A stretch of 56,241 nucleotides of DNA, from assembly GCA_020345745.1 (NCBI GenBank), contig CP070768.1:2494672-2550912 (forward strand), read 5' to 3'. The notes under the pieces are model-generated. The model saw only the letters and a list, made by a program, of their open reading frames with translations, was not told where the DNA came from and ran no database searches. Position numbers and translations under genes: made by a program. This stretch comes from Desulfobacterales bacterium. Its GTDB lineage: Bacteria > Desulfobacterota > Desulfobacteria > Desulfobacterales > UBA11574. Below are positions 3,001 through 47,751 of the stretch, piece after piece; within the stretch, counting starts at the first letter, position 1; the number at the start of each line of letters is the position of its first letter.

Positions 3001-3431
3001 GGGATTTCACCATGGAGGCAGCTTGACAGGCCAATGAGCCCTTCACTCAGGTTTCTCAAAACGTCTTTGTCGATTCGCGGCTTATAATAAAATCCCTCCA
3101 GTTGGGCAATGGAAGCCAGTTTGCATAGATTACGATAGCCGGTTTGATTTTCAGCCAGAAGGATCAAATGTGACAGCCCACCTTTATCCAGCGGCGTTTT
3201 TTCTGTAAGTCGCCGAGGGGCCAAATAACATTCGCAACCAATAATTGGTTTGATTCCCGCTTTGTTTGCTTTTTCATAAAATTCCAACGCACCGAACATG
3301 GTGCCATGATCGGTAATAGCTACAGCATCCATACCAAAATCGGCCACGCGTTTTAATAACGGTTCGATCCGAATGGCACCGTCCAAAAGGCTGTATTGGG
3401 TGTGGACATGAAGATGAACAAAATCGGACAT
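1..3431 (-). CDS. dnaE: DNA polymerase III alpha subunit; its 3-prime end runs off the window
   Basis: The minus-strand frame is open from the ATG at 3429-3431 to position 1. It is absent from the ORF track because no stop lies inside the window. My translation starts MSDFVHLHVHTQYSLLDGA (PHP domain) and contains GPGRGSAAGSLVAY, FDFLGLRNLT, YRPGP and FNKSHSAAYA. Confidence 0.93.
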   Translation of the reverse strand, partial: MSDFVHLHVHTQYSLLDGAIRIEPLLKRVADFGMDAVAITDHGTMFGALEFYEKANKAGIKPIIGCECYLAPRRLTEKTPLDKGGLSHLILLAENQTGYRNLCKLASIAQLEGFYYKPRIDKDVLRNLSEGLIGLSSCLHGEIPGLIQAGRIDQAEDAARFYQDVFGEGSFFLEVQNNGIEEQENVNQMLLDISQRLSIPLVATNDCHYLNKEDARAHDVLLCVQTGKVVQNTQRLKFRTDQLYLKSKDEMVATFKDYPGALENSVDIARRCNLTFDFDSYHFPHFETASGQTVDELFEQKVRDGFEKILQRVTAKHPDLDQQVYIDRVENEISLISSMGFSGYFLIVADFIRYAKDNQIPVGPGRGSAAGSLVAYSLGITDLDPIEHGLIFERFLNPARKSMPDIDVDFCINGREEVFKYVAEKYGGGDFVAQIITFGKLKTRAVIRDVGRALDIPLYEVDAIAKMIPDVLNITLDEALKQEPRLRDLAEKKPEVADLINICRVLEGLPRHASTHAAGVVIADKPLVEYLPLYKGKKGEVVTQFDMQCVEKIGLVKFDFLGLRNLTVIANTLDLIAKQGGNPPDHTNLDLNDSKTYRLLSSGETTGVFQLESSGMKDLLMRLRPERFDEVIALVALYRPGPLDSGMVDDFVDRKHGRKKVEFIVPELESILQETYGVIVYQEQVMKIASELANFSMSDADDLRKAMGKKIPSIMAKHREHFMQGAQENGILTDKAGKIFYLMEKFGGYGFNKSHSAAYALIAYQTAYLKAHYPVEFMASLLTSEMQSTDGVVKYMAECRSANIEVLPPDINDSGKAFTATGSKIRFGLVAVKNVGEGAIDAIIEVRNEKKFSSLFEFCERVDLRKVNKRVIESLIKCGAFDSTGNYRSQMMAVLEDCIDYGQRVQKEKLDPQIGLFKLEKGQQEINLPPMPDIDEWSEKQRLTFEKESLGFYITGHPLNRYEAVLEKFANVDSHILKGKKDGEAVRMGGMVRHTKIIKTKKGDLMAFVTLEDLHGSVEITVFSSLYAKVYHLLAEDVPILVQGQLQKDENSIKMLADKIISIDKADEFWTASIHFNLDATRTDKTLLIRLNDILKGHPGSCPAYVHLLNTDKTETVISLSDSLKLRASLALTREVNSLFGYH

Positions 3432-3826
3432 TTTTTAAAGGCTTTCTAAATCTTTGACCGGCCTGCTCCCCGCAAGTCCCGCCTTTTAAGGCGGGGTCTC
3501 GAGGGGGGCTATATGAAAATGAGAAAATCCTTACCGGGCGCGAAGCACTTCCGTACGGCAGAACCCCTCCTTTTAAGGTGGGGAGCTTCATTAAAACGGG
3601 TTTGAAAATTATCAATCGCCCTTAAGCTCAAGGCGGAGTAGCGGTAACTCCTCAATAAACAAGGGTTTATCTCACATATACGAGCTTAAGGCTTTTTGCA
3701 GGTAATTTTTAGCAGTTATGAACGGCGGTTTTAACCGCAGACGCATATAGAATATTTCGTGAATTGAAACCGGCGCTCCTACACAGAGATTAAGAGCCAA
3801 GGGGTAATTTAGAACCCCGTTTTTAA
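3432..3826. repeat. Intergenic mosaic of GC-rich stem-loops and repeat-family fragments
   Basis: Hairpins CCCGCC-ttttaa-GGCGGG (3478-3495) and CCCCTCC-ttttaa-GGTGGGG (3564-3583, one mismatch). The stretch cacagagattaagagccaagggg near 3782-3803 resembles the interior of the repeat at 21536-21679. Confidence 0.5.
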
Positions 3827-5350
<1,524 letters not shown>

Positions 5351-40195: not shown

Positions 40196-40606
40196 TTAAA
40201 GCTCGTACTCGCCATCCATGTCGAGAATGAATTCATTCGGGAAGTCTCCCCTAGTGACCTTGAACTTGCCCTCGCCTTTGATGTCCGCCAGCTTGCCGGT
40301 TCCTCTATAGGTTTTCCAGGTGCCTGTCGTGAGCTTGCTTTCTGCGTCACGCTCTCCCTCAAAACGGCTGTAAACCGAACCATACTGAAAGTTCGTCACC
40401 GCATACCCCTGCATGGGACCGCTTCCGCCAATTCGGTCATGAAAGTTGACGCTTCGGCGGGAAACAAATTCACCAGCTACCCCCACTTCATAGTGAAGCG
40501 GTGTGCCCTCCATTTCGACCAACATTAATTGGTGGTCGAACTCATCGTGAACATGAAGGGATTCCCTTCGGGTAATGCGAAGTTTATAGGTCGCTTTCCG
40601 TATCAT
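40196..40606 (-). CDS. Hypothetical protein (136 aa, beta-rich)
   Basis: AAGGAG SD 6 nt upstream of the ATG at 40606. No family recognised with confidence. Confidence 0.55.
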   Translation of the reverse strand: MIRKATYKLRITRRESLHVHDEFDHQLMLVEMEGTPLHYEVGVAGEFVSRRSVNFHDRIGGSGPMQGYAVTNFQYGSVYSRFEGERDAESKLTTGTWKTYRGTGKLADIKGEGKFKVTRGDFPNEFILDMDGEYEL

Positions 40607-40833: not shown

Positions 40834-42711
40834 TTAATAACTGCCCAGTATTTTCAGATAGTCGGTTTTCTCGTCAAGCAAATCGAGCACGGGCTTAAAC
40901 GCGTCTGATTCTGCATCTGCTTCAACGTCGACATAAAACATATACTCCCAGGGCTTTCCGTGGATGGGTCGGGATTCTAGCTTTACTAAATTAATATGGT
41001 TGTCAGCATATATTTTCAAAACTTCATAAAGAGCGCCGGGTTGGTTGCCGGTGGAAAAGATGAGAGACGATTTTCTTCGGGGTCTTTTTTCAAGCTGTTC
41101 TTTGCCGATAACCACAAAGCGAGTATAGTTTCTGGGATTGGTTTCGATCCCTTCTTCAATAACCGCCATCGAGTGAATTTCAGCTGCCTCTTTGCTGGAA
41201 ATGGCAGCGTCAGTCACGTTTCTCCTGTCGCTTATTTCTTTAGCAGCAGCTGAAGTGTCATTAACCGGAACCAGCTTCCAATCTGAATGACGCTCCAAAA
41301 ATTGACGGCATTGCTGAAAAATAAGCGGCGGTGATAAAACCCGTTTGATCGTATCGATCCGTGCATCCGGGTGACCGATAAGGTAATGCATGACACGAAT
41401 AGTGATCTCGCCGATGATTCTTAGATCATATTCGAGAAGAAAGTCATAGTTTTCATGGATACTTCCGGTAAGGGAATTTTCCAACGGCACAACACCGAAA
41501 TCGACCTCACCCCGCTTTACGGCTTCGAAGATCGCTCTAAACGAAGGTGCCGGGATGGCTTCTACTTGTGCGCCAAAATATTGTAAGCAGGCTTTATGGC
41601 TGAACGTACCCATTTCACCCAAGAATGCAGCTCTTTGTAATCCGGTTCCGTTAACTTTTGCCAAATAATCGACAGCGGAAGCTTTGTCCAGATAATCAAA
41701 ATCGAGCTGTTTACCGATCACCGGTGCGATGACATAAATATCTCGCATGAGTTGTCCGAACTGTTTTGGATAAAGGCTCTGGGGACCATCAGACAGGGCA
41801 TGATCCGGATCGTGATGTACTTCAATCATCAATCCGTCTGCTCCGGCAGCAATGGCAGCCCGGGCCATGGGACTCACCTTTTCACGGATTCCGGTGGCAT
41901 GGCTGGGATCGATAATTACCGGCAAGTGCGTCAAAGTCTTGAGAACGGGAATTGCAGACAGATCAAGTGTGTTTCGTGTGTAGGGTTCGAAAGTTCGAAT
42001 CCCTCGTTCACACAATATAACGTTGTCATTGCCCTCTGAAAGAATATACTCGGCTGACATCAGCCACTCTTCTATAGTGGATGAAAGCCCTCTTTTTAAA
42101 ATAACCGGTTTGCCAATGCGACCGACACATTTCAAAAGTTCAAAATTTTGCATGTTGCGGGCGCCCACCTGCACAACATCCACATATTTCATCATCATAT
42201 CGGCTTGCGCCGGGGATGTGATCTCGGTCACAACACCCATCCCGGTGACCTCTCCGACTTCGGATAGAATCTTAAGCCCTTCCTCTTGCATGCCCTGAAA
42301 AGAATAAGGGGACGTTCTCGGCTTGAATGCTCCCCCTCGAAACAGTATGGCGCCGTATTTTCTGACTTCATTGGCAATCGTCAATGCCTGTTCCCTGCTC
42401 TCAACAGCACAGGGACCCGCGACAACCGTAATGCGTTCGCCACCTACAACAGCATCCCGAACCTGAACGCGCGTGTCCTCCGGACTCAATTGTCGACTCA
42501 CAAGCTTAAAAGATGTGGAAATGGGAATCACCTTGGAGACACCGGCAAGCTGTTCAAAAAAATCGACAGCCAGACTCCCCTTGCCCACAGCGCCAATAAT
42601 GTGTTGACCCGCCTCGGACATCTCACGAACAATATATCCCTCTTTAAAGAGTATGCTCCGTATATTGCTCTTCTGATCCGGAGTGATTCCTTTTTCCAAC
42701 ACGAGAATCAT
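40834..42711 (-). CDS. Fusion protein: type I-beta DAH7P synthase with an N-terminal ferredoxin-like domain, plus prephenate dehydratase with an ACT domain
   Basis: 625 aa with an AAGGAGG SD. N-terminus [13 protein letters not shown]...[13 protein letters not shown] (Thermotoga-type regulatory domain). DAH7PS motifs [27 protein letters not shown] and IIDPSHA. Prephenate dehydratase motifs [11 protein letters not shown] and [11 protein letters not shown] domain [10 protein letters not shown]...NLVKLESRP. Confidence 0.88.
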
Positions 42712-42869
42712 AATAAACCTCCTTTTAATGAGTTACTCAATTTTCCCAGCCCAACGTTGAATGCGATCTACAGCAAAGTTCGGCTGGTAAAATTTTAAAG
42801 ACAAAATTAAAATAAAGCGTTTTTACACTTGCAACGGTGTATATGTATCAATTGAGATTTTATATTTAC

Positions 42870-42904
42870 AAAAAAAGCCCCGAGAATGGTTGTTTCCCGG
42901 GGCT
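42870..42904 (-). terminator. Intrinsic terminator of the Phe attenuator
   Basis: The minus-strand RNA reads AGCCCCG-ggaaacaaccauucu-CGGGGCU followed by six more U. It lies about 160 nt upstream of the DAH7PS-PDT start codon. Confidence 0.6.
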
Positions 42905-42965
42905 GAAAAAAAGAAACCCCGGACAGACCGGTTGAGGTCCATCCGGGGTTATTTAACGGTTTGTG

Positions 42966-43049
42966 TTAAACTACCGGATGGACGTTTCTAAAGCTAAAAA
43001 AGAAACGCCCGAAAACCTTTTTTACGTTAAATGTATGATCTTTCGCCAT
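42966..43049 (-). CDS. Phe-rich leader peptide (27 aa); not in the ORF track
   Basis: My translation is MAKDHTFNVKKVFGRFFFSFRNVHPVV. Five Phe fall within residues 13-20. AGGA lies 13 nt upstream of the ATG. Confidence 0.6.
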   Translation of the reverse strand: MAKDHTFNVKKVFGRFFFSFRNVHPVV

Positions 43050-43084
43050 GGTTATTATCTTTTCCTTTGAATCTTTAAGGTGTG

Positions 43085-43113
43085 ATAATAATCGACTCTT
43101 TGGAGCCTGTCAA
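43085..43113 (-). promoter_or_regulatory. Near-consensus sigma70 promoter driving the leader and the DAH7PS-PDT gene
   Basis: On the minus strand: TTGACA (43113-43108), a 17-nt spacer, then TATTAT (43090-43085). Confidence 0.55.
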
Positions 43114-43231
43114 GAGTTGTTTGAGAATTTAATCCAAACATTCGTTCCAGCTATCTTTCATATATTTATTGCGATTTGACAACGTTGTGATAAAAGATGG
43201 GCAATGTTAACCAAAATAAGAGGCACGCCAA

Positions 43232-44260
43232 ATGAAAATCCTTGAAATTTTTGGCAGCAACGGAGATTCAACCCTATTTGTAGGTGAGAGAATTCAACAT
43301 CTACAAAAATATATTCCGGGGAAAAAAGCGATTATAATAACGGATATCAATGTTAAACATTTCTATGAGAAGGAATTCCCCTCCTACGAGGTCATTACTA
43401 TCGGAACCGGTGAAGAGATCAAGACCCTGGATACGGCCCGGGCCATATATAAGAGGCTGGTGGAACTCGAGGCCGACCGTTCCACGTTTATCATCGGAAT
43501 CGGGGGTGGGATTGTTTGCGATATTGCCGGATTTGTTGCTTCAACCTATCTGCGCGGCGTGAAATTCGGATTTGTCTCCACCACGTTGCTGTCTCAAGTT
43601 GACGCAAGCGTTGGCGGTAAGAACGGGGTCAATTTCGAAGGGTATAAAAACATGGTGGGCGTTTTCAATCAACCGCAGTTTGTTATCTGCGACCCTTTCC
43701 TTTTGCATACCTTGCCCCAAAAAGAGATTCGATGCGGGTTGGCCGAAATCGTCAAACATGCCGCCATTGCTGATGCCAATCTATTTACCTTTCTTGAAGC
43801 ACATTACCAACAAGCTCAATCGCTAGATACCGATGTCATTGAAAAGCTGGTGTACGATTCAGTGGTTATCAAATCAGACATTGTCAATAGGGATGAAACA
43901 GAACAAGGGGAACGCCGCAAACTGAATTTCGGCCATACTTTCGGACACGCCATTGAAAAGACGACCGGAGTTTCTCATGGAGAGGCGATCAGTATCGGTA
44001 TGGTGATGGCTTCAGCGCTTTCCGTAAAAAAAGAGCACCTGCCGGTCCACGACGCCCAAAGGATCAAGCATTTACTCGAAAAGCTCGGACTCCCAACGAC
44101 ATTTGAGACCCATAGAAACAACATCATCGATGCAGTGCACAAGGATAAAAAACGTGAAGGGGATCGAATACATTTTGTTCTGCTCAACGGTTTAGGAAGC
44201 GCGTTTGTGGATAACATACCTATTAAGGAGCTAACGGCCGCTATTACTTATATGTCATAA
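43232..44260 (+). CDS. aroB: 3-dehydroquinate synthase
   Basis: 342 aa with GGGIVCDIAGFVASTYLRGV, GGKNGVN and NFGHTFGHAIE. Confidence 0.92.
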   Translation: MKILEIFGSNGDSTLFVGERIQHLQKYIPGKKAIIITDINVKHFYEKEFPSYEVITIGTGEEIKTLDTARAIYKRLVELEADRSTFIIGIGGGIVCDIAGFVASTYLRGVKFGFVSTTLLSQVDASVGGKNGVNFEGYKNMVGVFNQPQFVICDPFLLHTLPQKEIRCGLAEIVKHAAIADANLFTFLEAHYQQAQSLDTDVIEKLVYDSVVIKSDIVNRDETEQGERRKLNFGHTFGHAIEKTTGVSHGEAISIGMVMASALSVKKEHLPVHDAQRIKHLLEKLGLPTTFETHRNNIIDAVHKDKKREGDRIHFVLLNGLGSAFVDNIPIKELTAAITYMS

Positions 44261-44628: not shown

Positions 44629-47600
44629 TTAAGGCTTGCGATCCATGTCTTGTCTTAACTTTTTGATTCGCTCCACGGCAAATTCATATTCAATCCTTTC
44701 ATCCATATACGATCCCAGGGCTTCCTTATAATGTCTGGTGGCCTTCTGTTTATCACCGGAACCTTCAGCCCAAAATCCTAAAGCAGCATGTGCGGTAATA
44801 ATATATTCGGGACTTTCACCTGCCTTTTTTAGCAAGGACGCTTCTGTTCGTTCAGCCAAGAGAACTTCGCTGATCATCCGGTACCAAGAATCTTTCGTCC
44901 CTTGTTTGTACCTCTTGAGAATGGTCTTTGCTTGCTCTTTTTGTCCCATTCTGTAAAGGATCTCTGGTTCTAAAATCCCAACAGTTAAACGACCTGCGTT
45001 TTCTCGACCCTCTATCTCGAGATAGTTCTTGGCATATTCAAGCGCCCGGTGCCAAGATTCTGCTATGGCACTATAATATATCAGTCGGATAAGGACTTCC
45101 CCGTTGGTTTTGTCGTGATCATATATTTTTTTCAAAACAGACTGTTTGTCATGGATACTCAAGGTGTCTTGTTTGAGCTTTGCCATGATCGTCTCAAGCT
45201 CAATCCGACGGTCTGCCTTGGCCAAAAGACCGTTTTGTAAAGCGACTGCAAAGCCCTCTGTCTCAGCCTGATATTTGGTCTTCGCAACGTCATCTAGCAA
45301 GGATGATATTTTTTGCTGCTGCACCTGGCCCAGTTTCGCAAGGGCCATGAAAAATACCCAGTCATTGCTGTCAACACTCTGAACGGCTTTTTTCAGTAAA
45401 TTTTCTGCATGTTCCAGATCTCCTTGTTTTGTCAGGACCAGCCCGGCAATATAATAAAGCCAACCCTTTTCAGAATTAGAATAGCCGCCCTTGACAGCCG
45501 TTTTCATGTCGACAAGTCCTTCCAAAATCCTTACCAGATAACCGAAAAACTCGGAAGGAGATCGCCAATCCAAGGCCAATAATTGCCGGCCATGGGAACT
45601 TTCGGTCGAGCTGCCTGCCTGCCAGTCGATCACATAAAGCATGAGCCTGGCAAGGTCATTCTCCGAATCCATCGATAACGCATTAACAAACAGGGCTCTA
45701 GCTCCGGAGTAGTCCTTGGCACAGAAGTGCATCATCCCCGCCGCGATGACCAATGTCGGATCAAAGCTCAATTTCAATTCTTTATCGGCCAATGATTGGG
45801 CATCAACCCATCGCTGGCGGCTGGCTATCTCCGCGATCTGTTTCAGCTTGGTTGCAATCGATAAATCAAGGAATCCGTTCCATTTGACTTGTCCGGCTTT
45901 CAAATCATGCAAGAAACCAGCTGCCTGGGAAATGGGTAGTACCATACCTAAATCAGAGAGGAGCGTGGCTACCGGTATGGGTGCGGTCGCCCAGTCCACT
46001 GCCACGCTAGAGGCGATACCGATGACGTTGCCGTGAATATCGATGATCGGCCCGCCACTGTTACCCTTGTAGATAGAGGTATCGACTTGGATCATATTTT
46101 TAAACGTGCGACGAACGTGCCCCCTCGTCACGCTGACGTTCACCGTAGCTGCCTGGGTTTGCCTGCCAAGCGGAAACCCCAGAGCAATCACCGGAGAAAG
46201 TCGAGGAATTTCCATTGTTGTCAAGTTAATGGCTAAAGGAAGAGGTTTGAGTTCAATCGGAACTTGATCGATTTTAAGGACCGCAAAGTCATCTTTCAGC
46301 GGTGATTTAACCCGTTGCCAAGTCTTTATAGGTGGTCTGGCTACACCGGCGATGGTCAAGCGAGGCATGCCGTCGGTCCTAAAGGCGGCATTAATGTAAT
46401 AGATGTCGTCCAAATCTGTACTACCTGATAACCCTGGTAAGCGTTTGAAGGCTTTTTCACCATCAAACCATAAAAACGCCCGATAGCCCAAGCGAGGTGA
46501 CCGCTGCAACATCTTGAGTCTTCCGATGAGCGCATACAGCTTGGTATCTTCCAACCAGGGACAGGCGACATGGCGGTTGGTTAACAGGTAGCCCTCTGCA
46601 TCCACAAGAAACGCCGTTCCTTCGGTCCTATTGCGGTAAACCATGGTTTCACCATCATTTAGCCAATAGTCAACCAGGACAAATGCCACGGCTCCGGCAT
46701 ATTGATTGGCGTATTCGCCGAGAACGGTTTCACTGTCCCTTTTACTATAAGCGTAATAGATCCATGCCAGGCCTCCAAGAAGAATCAGAACAGCCAAAAT
46801 GACCACCAAAAAGCGCAAGCTTTTCTTGATCCCTCTGATTTCCTGTACCGGCGTCGAAACGGCATCCAGGTGGTCCAGCCTGTCCGGCTCAAACGCTTCG
46901 ATGTCGATCCCGGCCAGCGTTTTGGCAACGTTGGCCATGGTCCGAGGTCGTAGATCCGGATCTTCAGCCAGCATGATTTTAAGCAAAATTTCCATTTCCG
47001 AAGGAAGGCTTAACTGACCTATTTTGTCTTGAAAGTCTCTCACTTCGTGATCGGCGGTGAGCAGTTCCACGAAAATTTTCCCTAACGACCAGATATCGCT
47101 TCTAATATCCAGCGGCCTGTTGTTGACAATATCGGGGTGACAGGAAAGGAGTTTTTTCAACATGGGCCCGGGTTGGTCCATTTTCGGGTCGAGGAAGCGA
47201 GACAGCTTGTAATCAATTTTAACATCCAGTTCACCATCTTCTCTTTTGAAAATAATAACATCATCTAAAATGAGATGCGGGATAAAATGCCCGATTTGAT
47301 GGAGACCTTCAAGAATTGAGGCGATCCTGGAAAAAAGGTTGAAGGCGGCACGATAGTCTTGGAAAATGCCGGAAGCCAACAAGGCTCCCCAGCTCTCAGC
47401 ATCAATCCATTCGCTTACCCGATACCATAACCCGTCCTGGGATCTCCTGATCTCAAGATGCCTGACGAAGTAATCCTCGGGAAGCTGCTTGAGTTGTTCC
47501 AGTTCCTGTTTGAGGCGATCGGCTATGCTGTTGTCCACTCCGGACCGGGGAGTGAATATGCGAATCATAACCGACCCCTCCATATCATTTTTGACCGCGC

Positions 47601-47751
47601 GGCATAGGATGCTGGAGTATCCTTCGTGGATGATTTCAACGATTTGATAGTCGTCGATGAATTTCCTTCCTTCACCAATTTCGCTACCGCATGAGGGACA
47701 GGCTATAATCTCTTCCGCCACCAACTGTCCACATGTTTGGCACAACTTCAT
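44629..47751 (-). CDS. Membrane protein: zinc ribbon, degenerate Ser/Thr-kinase-like domain, TM helix, trypsin-like serine protease, TPR-like repeats
   Basis: 1040 aa. Zinc ribbon CQTCG..CPSCG at aa 4-21. Kinase subdomains DIWSLGKIFVELLT and DPDLRPR are present, but the HRD, VAIK and DFG equivalents read IPH, MIR and DYK. TM helix at aa 312-335. Protease triad motifs LLTNRHVA, DDFAVLKI and GNSGGPIID. The helical repeat tail runs from about aa 640 to 1040. Confidence 0.8.
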   Translation of the reverse strand: MKLCQTCGQLVAEEIIACPSCGSEIGEGRKFIDDYQIVEIIHEGYSSILCRAVKNDMEGSVMIRIFTPRSGVDNSIADRLKQELEQLKQLPEDYFVRHLEIRRSQDGLWYRVSEWIDAESWGALLASGIFQDYRAAFNLFSRIASILEGLHQIGHFIPHLILDDVIIFKREDGELDVKIDYKLSRFLDPKMDQPGPMLKKLLSCHPDIVNNRPLDIRSDIWSLGKIFVELLTADHEVRDFQDKIGQLSLPSEMEILLKIMLAEDPDLRPRTMANVAKTLAGIDIEAFEPDRLDHLDAVSTPVQEIRGIKKSLRFLVVILAVLILLGGLAWIYYAYSKRDSETVLGEYANQYAGAVAFVLVDYWLNDGETMVYRNRTEGTAFLVDAEGYLLTNRHVACPWLEDTKLYALIGRLKMLQRSPRLGYRAFLWFDGEKAFKRLPGLSGSTDLDDIYYINAAFRTDGMPRLTIAGVARPPIKTWQRVKSPLKDDFAVLKIDQVPIELKPLPLAINLTTMEIPRLSPVIALGFPLGRQTQAATVNVSVTRGHVRRTFKNMIQVDTSIYKGNSGGPIIDIHGNVIGIASSVAVDWATAPIPVATLLSDLGMVLPISQAAGFLHDLKAGQVKWNGFLDLSIATKLKQIAEIASRQRWVDAQSLADKELKLSFDPTLVIAAGMMHFCAKDYSGARALFVNALSMDSENDLARLMLYVIDWQAGSSTESSHGRQLLALDWRSPSEFFGYLVRILEGLVDMKTAVKGGYSNSEKGWLYYIAGLVLTKQGDLEHAENLLKKAVQSVDSNDWVFFMALAKLGQVQQQKISSLLDDVAKTKYQAETEGFAVALQNGLLAKADRRIELETIMAKLKQDTLSIHDKQSVLKKIYDHDKTNGEVLIRLIYYSAIAESWHRALEYAKNYLEIEGRENAGRLTVGILEPEILYRMGQKEQAKTILKRYKQGTKDSWYRMISEVLLAERTEASLLKKAGESPEYIITAHAALGFWAEGSGDKQKATRHYKEALGSYMDERIEYEFAVERIKKLRQDMDRKP

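Follow-up and report, generated by a model that had tools for sequence, protein, structure and literature searches.

The 56,241-nucleotide (nt) stretch of DNA analysed here (referred to in its whole length as the window; contig CP070768.1 of assembly GCA_020345745.1, from a Desulfobacterales bacterium) carries on its minus strand a gene for a 625-amino acid (aa) fusion enzyme, in which a type I-beta 3-deoxy-D-arabino-heptulosonate 7-phosphate (DAHP) synthase with an N-terminal ferredoxin-like domain is joined to a prephenate dehydratase and an ACT domain (Pfam DAHP_snth_FXD, DAHP_synth_1, PDT and ACT; NCBIfam PRK08673 and PRK11898). This aroG-pheA fusion, whose ATG follows a strong Shine-Dalgarno sequence (AAGGAGG), is divergent from its neighbor aroB (3-dehydroquinate synthase; 43232-44260, plus strand). 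Between the two genes lie a predicted promoter, a short open reading frame (ORF) with a run of phenylalanine codons, and a series of mutually complementary RNA segments that includes two terminator-like hairpins. We propose, at a probability of about three in four, that this region is a ribosome-mediated leader-peptide attenuator that works as a relay of the his-leader type through two successive terminators, senses charged tRNA-Phe and controls aroG-pheA and probably a 136-aa ORF downstream.

Leader-peptide attenuation has been worked out almost wholly in enterobacteria and a few other groups. An earlier note on this DNA, made from the letters alone, had proposed a phenylalanine-rich leader peptide followed by a five-segment attenuator with a single terminator; the comparative and folding analyses reported here bear out most of that reading, and alter it in several respects.

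Results

A conserved phenylalanine-rich leader ORF

The leader ORF (MAKDHTFNVKKVFGRFFFSFRNVHPVV, 27 aa from an ATG start) is pheL-like, with phenylalanine at codons 13, 16, 17, 18 and 20, that is, five within eight codons, and it occupies the minus-strand positions (43049-42966) given for it in the earlier note. The TTGACA-17-TATTAT promoter that the note had placed at 43113-43085 was also located there; the end of its -10 hexamer is 35 nt from the leader ATG, and a TTGACA-17/18-TAnnnT sequence recurs at constant spacing, 54-85 nt 5' of a GRFFF motif, in at least 23 orthologous loci.

Relatives of the fused protein were taken as the best 80 of 585 loci (67-85% identity), all of them from metagenome-assembled or single-cell genomes and, with one exception, labelled Desulfobacteraceae, Desulfobacterales, Desulfobacteria, Thermodesulfobacteriota or ‘delta proteobacterium’. 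The element lies 5' of the orthologous gene in 70 of the 76 loci whose upstream sequence could be used, with a variant in four more, and in those 70 loci the small ORF ends F-G-R-F-F-F-[SI]-F-R-S-V-H-P-x-x behind a variable N-terminus. A 31-nt degenerate core pattern, which matches the window once (0.00 matches expected), was found in at least 120 further contigs from sediment metagenomes, and a covariance model built from the genome set, again with one match in the window, scores 103 metagenome copies at 72-157 bits. About 180 distinct leaders were found in Desulfobacterales genomes and sediment metagenomes. A scan of the window for other mini-ORFs with amino acid runs returned none comparable outside coding regions.

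Several features of the aligned ORFs (162 distinct leaders, except where another number is given) have the character of a translated sequence. The stop is at codon 28 in 156 leaders, with its identity rotating among TAA (76), TGA (44) and TAG (36). Phenylalanine is kept at codon 16 in 159 leaders, codon 17 in 157, codon 18 in all 162 and codon 20 in 161, and codon 13 uses both synonymous forms (78 TTT, 52 TTC); codon 19, in the middle of the run and in the same hairpin loop, is free to be S, I, G, N, F, Y or A, so that the conservation of the loop shows codon periodicity. The sole length change within the run measures 3 nt (locus L063; loci are cited below by such handles). Among 179 leaders, in-frame ATGs cluster at 13 (126), 14 (23), 12 (16) or 11 (21) codons before Gly-14, and an AGGA stands 9 nt before the leader ATG in many loci. 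The N-terminal sequence of the peptide is not conserved and its last two residues also vary freely, while the C-terminal half is conserved (V23 in 162 of 162, P25 in 151, H24 in 139). Because the position of the stop is fixed while its identity rotates, the phenylalanine codons are kept, codon 19 is free and the ATGs are clustered, we read the ORF as coding, and from this comparative signature it is probably translated. Both features that the earlier note had wanted checked in related upstream regions are present: a conserved phenylalanine run and, as described below, covariation in the stems.

Six segments and two terminator-like hairpins

The leader RNA comprises six segments, A to F, which can pair in two mutually exclusive registers: A:B, C:D and E:F (terminated), or B:C and D:E (read-through). 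Segment A (GGGCGUUUCU, 43010-43001) pairs with the 5' part of segment B (AGAAACGUCC, 42989-42980) over 10 base pairs (bp), in a hairpin that lies inside the ORF and over the phenylalanine codons; the 3' part of B, which ends two codons ahead of the leader stop, pairs with C over 10 bp. The C:D hairpin, followed by UCUUUUUUU, forms a predicted terminator (T1) located 11 nt ahead of the second one (T2), which is formed by E:F.

The five segments of the earlier note are exactly where it had put them (s1 42983-42974, s2 42946-42937, s3 42923-42915, s4 42904-42897 and s5 42882-42876, then U7), as is AACCCCGGA at 42950-42942, and its pairings s1:s2 and s3:s4 are our B:C and D:E. What it overlooked is the sixth segment, A, over the phenylalanine codons. 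Its terminator, T2, likewise stands, but it is not the only one, as the pairing s2:s3 is the core of the 15-bp T1, which has a U-tract of its own.

By a threshold of at least 6 U in 10 nt, a good U-tract follows C:D in 156 of 171 leaders; in the remaining 15 it is degenerate, with almost none left in three of these (L043, L065 and L086). All 15 keep the leader, B:C, D:E and T2, and the E:F hairpin with its U-run is present in every aligned leader. These 15 leaders support the D:E relay, because in them the ribosome signal could act only via D:E on T2. The counts are based on a local hairpin search and on alignment-based counting of the U-tracts, as counting from minimum-energy structures miscounted many loci via alternative global folds. 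The two sites were also considered as the 3' end of a convergent gene, a candidate that is ruled out by the divergent orientation of aroB and by U-tracts on the minus strand only.

Between B and C lies a small hairpin that includes the stop codon; its length varies, and it is probably a mere spacer. Two loci (L139:1243-1458, minus strand; L146:4574-4819, plus strand) have an insertion of about 90 nt at this place, hairpin-forming by eye, which would turn the antiterminator into a long-range pairing.

Conservation and covariation of both registers

The 226-nt leader folds at -72.7 kcal/mol, compared with a mean of -47.7 kcal/mol for shuffled sequences (z = -5.8; 0 of 200 shuffles as good). Pairing was counted in both registers in a MAFFT alignment of 68 genome leaders (A1) and in an independent alignment of metagenome leaders fitted to the terminated structure only (A2). 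In A1 each of the five helices is 92-99% paired, and in the strong rows of A2 four of the five reach 95-99.6%; compensatory pairs occur in every one. In the terminated register, A1 gives 96.6% for A:B, 91.9% for C:D and 95.4% for E:F (89.9% overall, with 18 doubly changed pairs; slid controls at most 53%), and in the read-through register 99.4% for B:C and 97.5% for D:E (98.5% overall; slid controls at most 66%); neither overall value was reached in any of 500 shuffles. All rows of A2 together are 96.7% paired, A:B is 99.2% paired in this metagenome set, and the strong rows give 99.6% for B:C, 89.5% for C:D and 96.3% for D:E, so that the two pairings expected from the earlier note, B:C and D:E, are upheld in both sets. 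RNAalifold independently predicts A:B, C:D and E:F.

Compensatory changes in A1 comprise CG/UA in A:B, a GC/AU pair in C:D (38 to 29), six doubly changed pairs in E:F, and a pair in B:C (columns 45/106) that is UA in 29 leaders, CG in 19 and UG in 17. The most telling pair for the relay is D131:E170, which is CG in 46 and UA in 16 leaders of A1, and CG in 45 and UA in 40 of A2 (matched by 0 of 500 shuffles), the switch occurring at no fewer than four separate places on a neighbor-joining tree of the enzymes. The partner of D131 in segment C stays G throughout, forming G-C or G-U in T1; because this G is unchanged, the switch of D131 to U is matched in E and not in C.

Folding at the decision points

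The helix energies are -12.5 kcal/mol for A:B, -21.7 for B:C (including the enclosed hairpin), -27.7 for C:D, -13.8 for D:E and -18.5 for E:F. The pairings are mutually exclusive, as the earlier note had it, and its call for a comparison of their energies adds a constraint: both terminators are more stable than the antiterminated pairings that compete with them, and on these models the choice must therefore be kinetic, that is, co-transcriptional. Equilibrium folding of the full leader with a ribosome mask was rejected as a description of the switch; the antiterminator never appears in it, T1 being more stable.

We therefore folded the RNA as it would stand at each decision point, treating the last 12 nt as buried in the polymerase and masking a 30-nt ribosome footprint; this is a modelling choice, and these are simple models rather than simulations. 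When the polymerase has reached the T1 U-tract and the ribosomal A site holds F17 or F18, the minimum-energy fold contains B:C, whereas C:D forms with the ribosome at the stop codon, and A:B together with C:D with no ribosome present. The exchange of B:C for C:D follows the stall-and-stop logic of the earlier note. When B:C is held and the polymerase is at the T2 U-tract, D:E forms; when B:C is held and F is fully exposed, the minimum-energy fold has E:F.

Table 1. Coordinates of the leader elements and associated genes in the window and of related leaders in other loci (prefix L), with the basis of each entry.
Feature	Position	Strand	Basis or remarks
Predicted sigma-70-type promoter, TTGACA-17-TATTAT	43085..43113	-	11/12 consensus positions
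Leader ORF (pheL-like)	42966..43049	-	27 codons plus stop; conserved frame
Regulatory Phe codon cluster (13, 16, 17, 18, 20)	42990..43013	-	conservation in 162 leaders
Segment A (GGGCGUUUCU)	43001..43010	-	5' arm of the A:B (‘1:2’) hairpin; overlaps codons G14-R15-F16-F17
Segment B	42974..42989	-	5' part 42989-42980 pairs with A; 3' part 42983-42974 pairs with C (antiterminator arm); codons 21-26
Small weak hairpin including the stop codon, B-C spacer	42951..42971	-	-2.6 kcal/mol; 74% paired across loci; length varies
Hairpin C:D, predicted terminator 1 (T1), 15 bp	42915..42950	-	U-tract 42914-42905; terminator scan
Relay pairing D:E, predicted anti-T2	42896..42923	-	UCCGGGGUU (42923-42915) with AGCCCCGGG (42904-42896)
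Hairpin E:F, predicted terminator 2 (T2), 11 bp	42876..42904	-	U-tract 42875-42869 (U7); terminator scan
aroG-pheA fusion, 625 aa	40834..42711	-	Pfam, NCBIfam
Conserved 136-aa ORF	40196..40606	-	syntenic at 77-85% identity in 25 genome and 10 metagenome loci
Paired Phe leaders	L114:2536-2690, 3377-3531	+	
Paired Phe leaders	L178:3012-3166, 3853-4007	+	
Paired Phe leaders	L197:3218-3373, 4059-4215	+	
Trp-leader element	L144:10125-10285	+	weak covariance model match
Trp-leader element	L173:4160-4320	+	weak covariance model match
Trp-leader element	L163:9025-9193	-	weak covariance model match
Trp-leader element	L182:5776-5944	-	weak covariance model match

Genes behind the leader

In the window, the spacer from T2 to the aroG-pheA start (42712-42869, minus strand) is AT-rich and 158 nt long, and no promoter-like site was flagged on its minus strand; many orthologues have a spacer of only some 20-30 nt, and a few have one of about 230 nt (L001, L005, L007 and L031 are cited for this spacer). 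Downstream of the fusion follows the conserved 136-aa ORF, for which no Pfam, NCBIfam or Protein Data Bank sequence match was found and of which a single-sequence AlphaFold model is poor (mean pLDDT 36.5). No terminator-like site lies between pheA and this ORF and one lies just after it (40136-40107, minus strand); the ORF is probably the last (third) cistron of the same transcription unit, under the Phe attenuator.

The Phe leader with both hairpins also heads an unfused operon, encoding an ACT-pair protein (about 147 aa), a DAHP synthase (about 275 aa) and a chorismate mutase/prephenate dehydratase (about 354 aa). The first gene, found in many metagenome loci (e.g. L115:3711-4155, minus strand), encodes a pair of ACT domains (Pfam ACT_8); its product may serve as a free-standing regulatory subunit, taking the place of the ferredoxin-like and ACT domains that are fused into the window enzyme. 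In L146 no aromatic-pathway gene other than that for the ACT-pair protein was found behind the leader, and the next ORF encodes a methyltransferase. Three contigs carry a second copy of the Phe leader about 840 nt upstream, so that the first copy heads a gene for a type II 3-dehydroquinate dehydratase (aroQ) and the second the ACT-pair/DAHP synthase/chorismate mutase-prephenate dehydratase operon (Table 1).

In four further contigs the covariance model weakly matches a divergent element whose ORF, unlike that of the Phe leader, is rich in tryptophan (MRIYWWWCAAREVCPSG or ...VFFWCWWWNAG...), and which has an A:B-type hairpin and two tandem sites composed of a hairpin plus a U-tract. This Trp leader is oriented divergently to the Phe leader and precedes either trpE-G-D-C-F-B or the gene for a second DAHP synthase with a ferredoxin-like domain, which is followed by trpE. 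The window itself has no Trp-leader element, and its divergent gene is aroB. The double-terminator plan appears, from these arrangements, to be a habit of the lineage matched to the product of the pathway; amino acid-specific attenuation fits, because the same plan is reused with a Trp leader before trpE.

Across the whole window, no Rfam family scores as high as its gathering cutoff. A cmscan search of positions 42000-44000 at E-values up to 10 returned no Phe_leader (RF01859), T-box or riboswitch, and its matches to unrelated families, such as terminator-rich small RNAs, are at chance level (the ‘trpB motif’, for example, scores 21.8 bits against a gathering score of 59). With matches below threshold and of this kind only, membership of a known Rfam RNA family was rejected.

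Elsewhere in the window (44629-47751, minus strand), a 1040-aa ORF combines a protein kinase, a trypsin-like peptidase and TPR repeats, an unusual fusion that is unrelated to the attenuator.

Discussion

A proposed two-terminator attenuator for aroG-pheA

The features described above suggest the following course of events, in which translation of the ORF, termination at T1 and T2, the kinetic choice between folds and phenylalanine as the signal are inferred from sequence and its comparison. Transcription would start from the consensus promoter, and the 27-codon leader would be translated as the RNA polymerase advances. With phenylalanine plentiful, the ribosome would reach the stop at codon 28 and cover segment B, so that C:D would form and most polymerases would stop at T1, those leaking past it then meeting T2 (E:F). 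Without translation, A:B would sequester B and termination would again result (superattenuation). When charged tRNA-Phe is scarce, the ribosome would stall at codons 16-18 in segment A, leaving B free to pair with C once C emerges; B:C would leave D unpaired and block T1, D would take E before F is made and block T2, and the polymerase would enter aroG-pheA.

Two terminators under one sensor would be expected to lower basal leak multiplicatively, and may require that the stall lasts until the polymerase is past both. A stronger version of this idea, which we put forward only tentatively and think more apt to fail than to hold, is a two-checkpoint, time-gated attenuator, in which the ribosome must stay stalled until the polymerase clears first T1 and then T2, about 45 nt further on. 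As the plan is reused for tryptophan before trpE, such an attenuator could be a design rule common to the amino acid operons of the Desulfobacterales rather than a one-off. Under such time gating, a ribosome that restarted early would displace B from C, allowing C:D to re-form, E to be released from D and T2 to fire; if true, this would multiply the discrimination achieved with a single sensor and filter out brief pauses.

Several observations weigh against a translated, relay-type attenuator. In every scenario the terminator hairpins are favored at equilibrium (C:D over B:C, E:F over D:E), and the model leans on co-transcriptional kinetics that lie outside these folding calculations; the terminator of the Escherichia coli trp attenuator is likewise more stable than its antiterminator. 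The Shine-Dalgarno sequence of the window leader is weak (AGGA 13 nt from the ATG), and a similar motif 4-16 nt upstream is found in just 64 of 145 leaders. The nucleotide conservation of codons 14-16 and 21-26 is largely also explicable by RNA pairing, and is not independent evidence of translation. The leaders are related sequences, hence the shuffle controls, including the 0 of 500 for both registers, overstate significance. Finally, C and E both start CCCCGR and D and F both end YCGGGG, so the complementarity of D and E could partly be a by-product of two similar terminators.

This last point leads to the rival that survives best, although we judge it improbable: a classical Phe attenuator that switches T1 alone via B:C, with T2 outside the control of D:E (as a leaky back-up ceiling, or subject to another factor). 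The shared CCCCGR and YCGGGG motifs would then provide some D:E pairing for free, E:F is more stable than D:E by the energies given above, and once F is fully exposed it prevails in the minimum-energy fold even with B:C held. However, an uncontrolled 11-bp terminator with a U7 tract behind the switch would reduce expression at any phenylalanine state, and the retention of leader, B:C, D:E and T2 in the 15 of 171 leaders that lack a good T1 U-tract is sensible only if the signal reaches T2. The CG/UA covariation of D131:E170 with a fixed G as the partner in C, arising at several places in the tree, also counts against this rival.

The relay attenuator reading places the sensor in the supply of phenylalanine to the codon run. 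A second rival, to which we give very little credence, places it in the nascent peptide, which would halt the ribosome by means of its C-terminus (F-R-S/N-V-H-P-V-V-stop), possibly when free phenylalanine is present, in the manner of TnaC, which responds to tryptophan, or would act in trans as a micropeptide in the manner of peTrpL. The C-terminal half of the peptide is indeed the highly conserved one (V23, P25 and H24), and leader peptides that act in trans have been reported, among them peTrpL of Sinorhizobium. But codons 21-26 are also segment B, which pairs with both A and C, so that RNA constraint suffices for this conservation, and the codon changes track the pairing partners (columns 45/106); the last two residues and the N-terminus are free to vary, and a run of phenylalanine codons inside segment A is the classical signature of sensing by codon supply. 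Least credible of all is an untranslated structured RNA (a T-box, riboswitch or protein-binding leader) with an incidental ORF, for which one can cite the weak Shine-Dalgarno sequence in the window and a loose likeness of segment C (CCCGGGUGGACC) to the T-box core (GGGUGGNACC), but against which stand the Rfam results, the lack of room for a Stem I/specifier domain in the upstream 80 nt that the conserved ORF occupies, and a fixed start position, a fixed stop position of rotating identity and a codon-periodic loop, all unexpected in such an RNA.

Relation to known leaders

The element has what characterizes ribosome-mediated attenuators as a class, namely, a leader ORF, a cluster of codons for one amino acid, a putative intrinsic terminator, an antiterminator and a 1:2 hairpin. 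The closest functional parallel is the pheL-pheA leader of E. coli and other gamma-proteobacteria (Phe_leader; surveyed in PMC3082878), which similarly has an ORF with a phenylalanine run before the prephenate dehydratase gene, alternative hairpins and a terminator, and for which charged tRNA-Phe is likewise the inferred signal. There is, however, no sequence or structure homology detectable between the two (Phe_leader being absent at E-values up to 10); the peptide has 27 aa here and 15 there, six segments with two terminator-like hairpins replace four segments with a single terminator, and the target is a fusion of DAHP synthase and prephenate dehydratase, so that the first step of the pathway would be attenuated as well.

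In architecture the element is nearer to the his leader of Salmonella and E. coli, which Johnston and colleagues reportedly described in 1980 as six segments pairing A:B, C:D and E:F or B:C and D:E. That system shares with ours the six-segment relay, the regulatory codons in A and the transmission of the position of the ribosome to a distal terminator, E:F. Hairpins alternate in both; the his leader, however, is known to terminate at E:F only, whereas here a U-tract follows C:D in 156 of 171 leaders, so that termination could occur at two successive points. The two also sense different amino acids and are unrelated in sequence. The first half of the element corresponds to the E. coli trp attenuator, A:B, B:C and C:D being equivalent to 1:2 (a pause hairpin in that system), 2:3 and 3:4, with a more stable terminator, a kinetic switch and superattenuation without translation; the D:E/E:F stage downstream is the addition seen here. 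The pheM leader peptide of E. coli pheST has a core (F-R-F-F-F-x-F) nearly identical to the G-R-F-F-F-S-F found here, but its targets are the genes for Phe-tRNA synthetase rather than for biosynthesis, and the resemblance is probably convergent, both being phenylalanine runs.

Within the lineage, the earlier note had implied greater novelty than can be claimed, as a possible pheL in Desulfobacterium autotrophicum is mentioned in one sentence of Gurvich et al. 2011 (PMC3082878). This pheL shares with the present leaders the bacterial family and a phenylalanine-codon ORF before pheA, and it is very probably a member of the leader family described here; the main text of that paper gives neither sequence nor structure for it, and does not mention tandem terminators, a relay, the breadth of the family or a Trp counterpart. 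A study of delta-proteobacterial regulons (Rodionov et al. 2004) mentions neither leader peptides nor pheA. The mechanism itself is known, but the literature searched appears to contain no description of the leader family, of its arrangement in six segments with two terminators, of the range of operons that it precedes or of its Trp sibling.

The distribution of the element points to a large and conserved attenuator family in the sulfate-reducing Desulfobacterales, mostly uncultured sediment bacteria whose gene regulation has hardly been studied, and Rfam contains no model for this family. If real, the family alignment could seed a covariance model for annotating these genomes, and aroG, pheA, aroQ, the ACT-pair protein and the conserved 136-aa protein would form a predicted phenylalanine-responsive set. 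The family would also lend itself naturally to testing what a second, serial terminator contributes to the tightness or timing of an attenuator. Placing the entry step of the shikimate pathway and a phenylalanine-specific step under one switch raises the question of how the supply of tyrosine and tryptophan is protected, and the second DAHP synthase under a Trp leader in some relatives hints at an answer.

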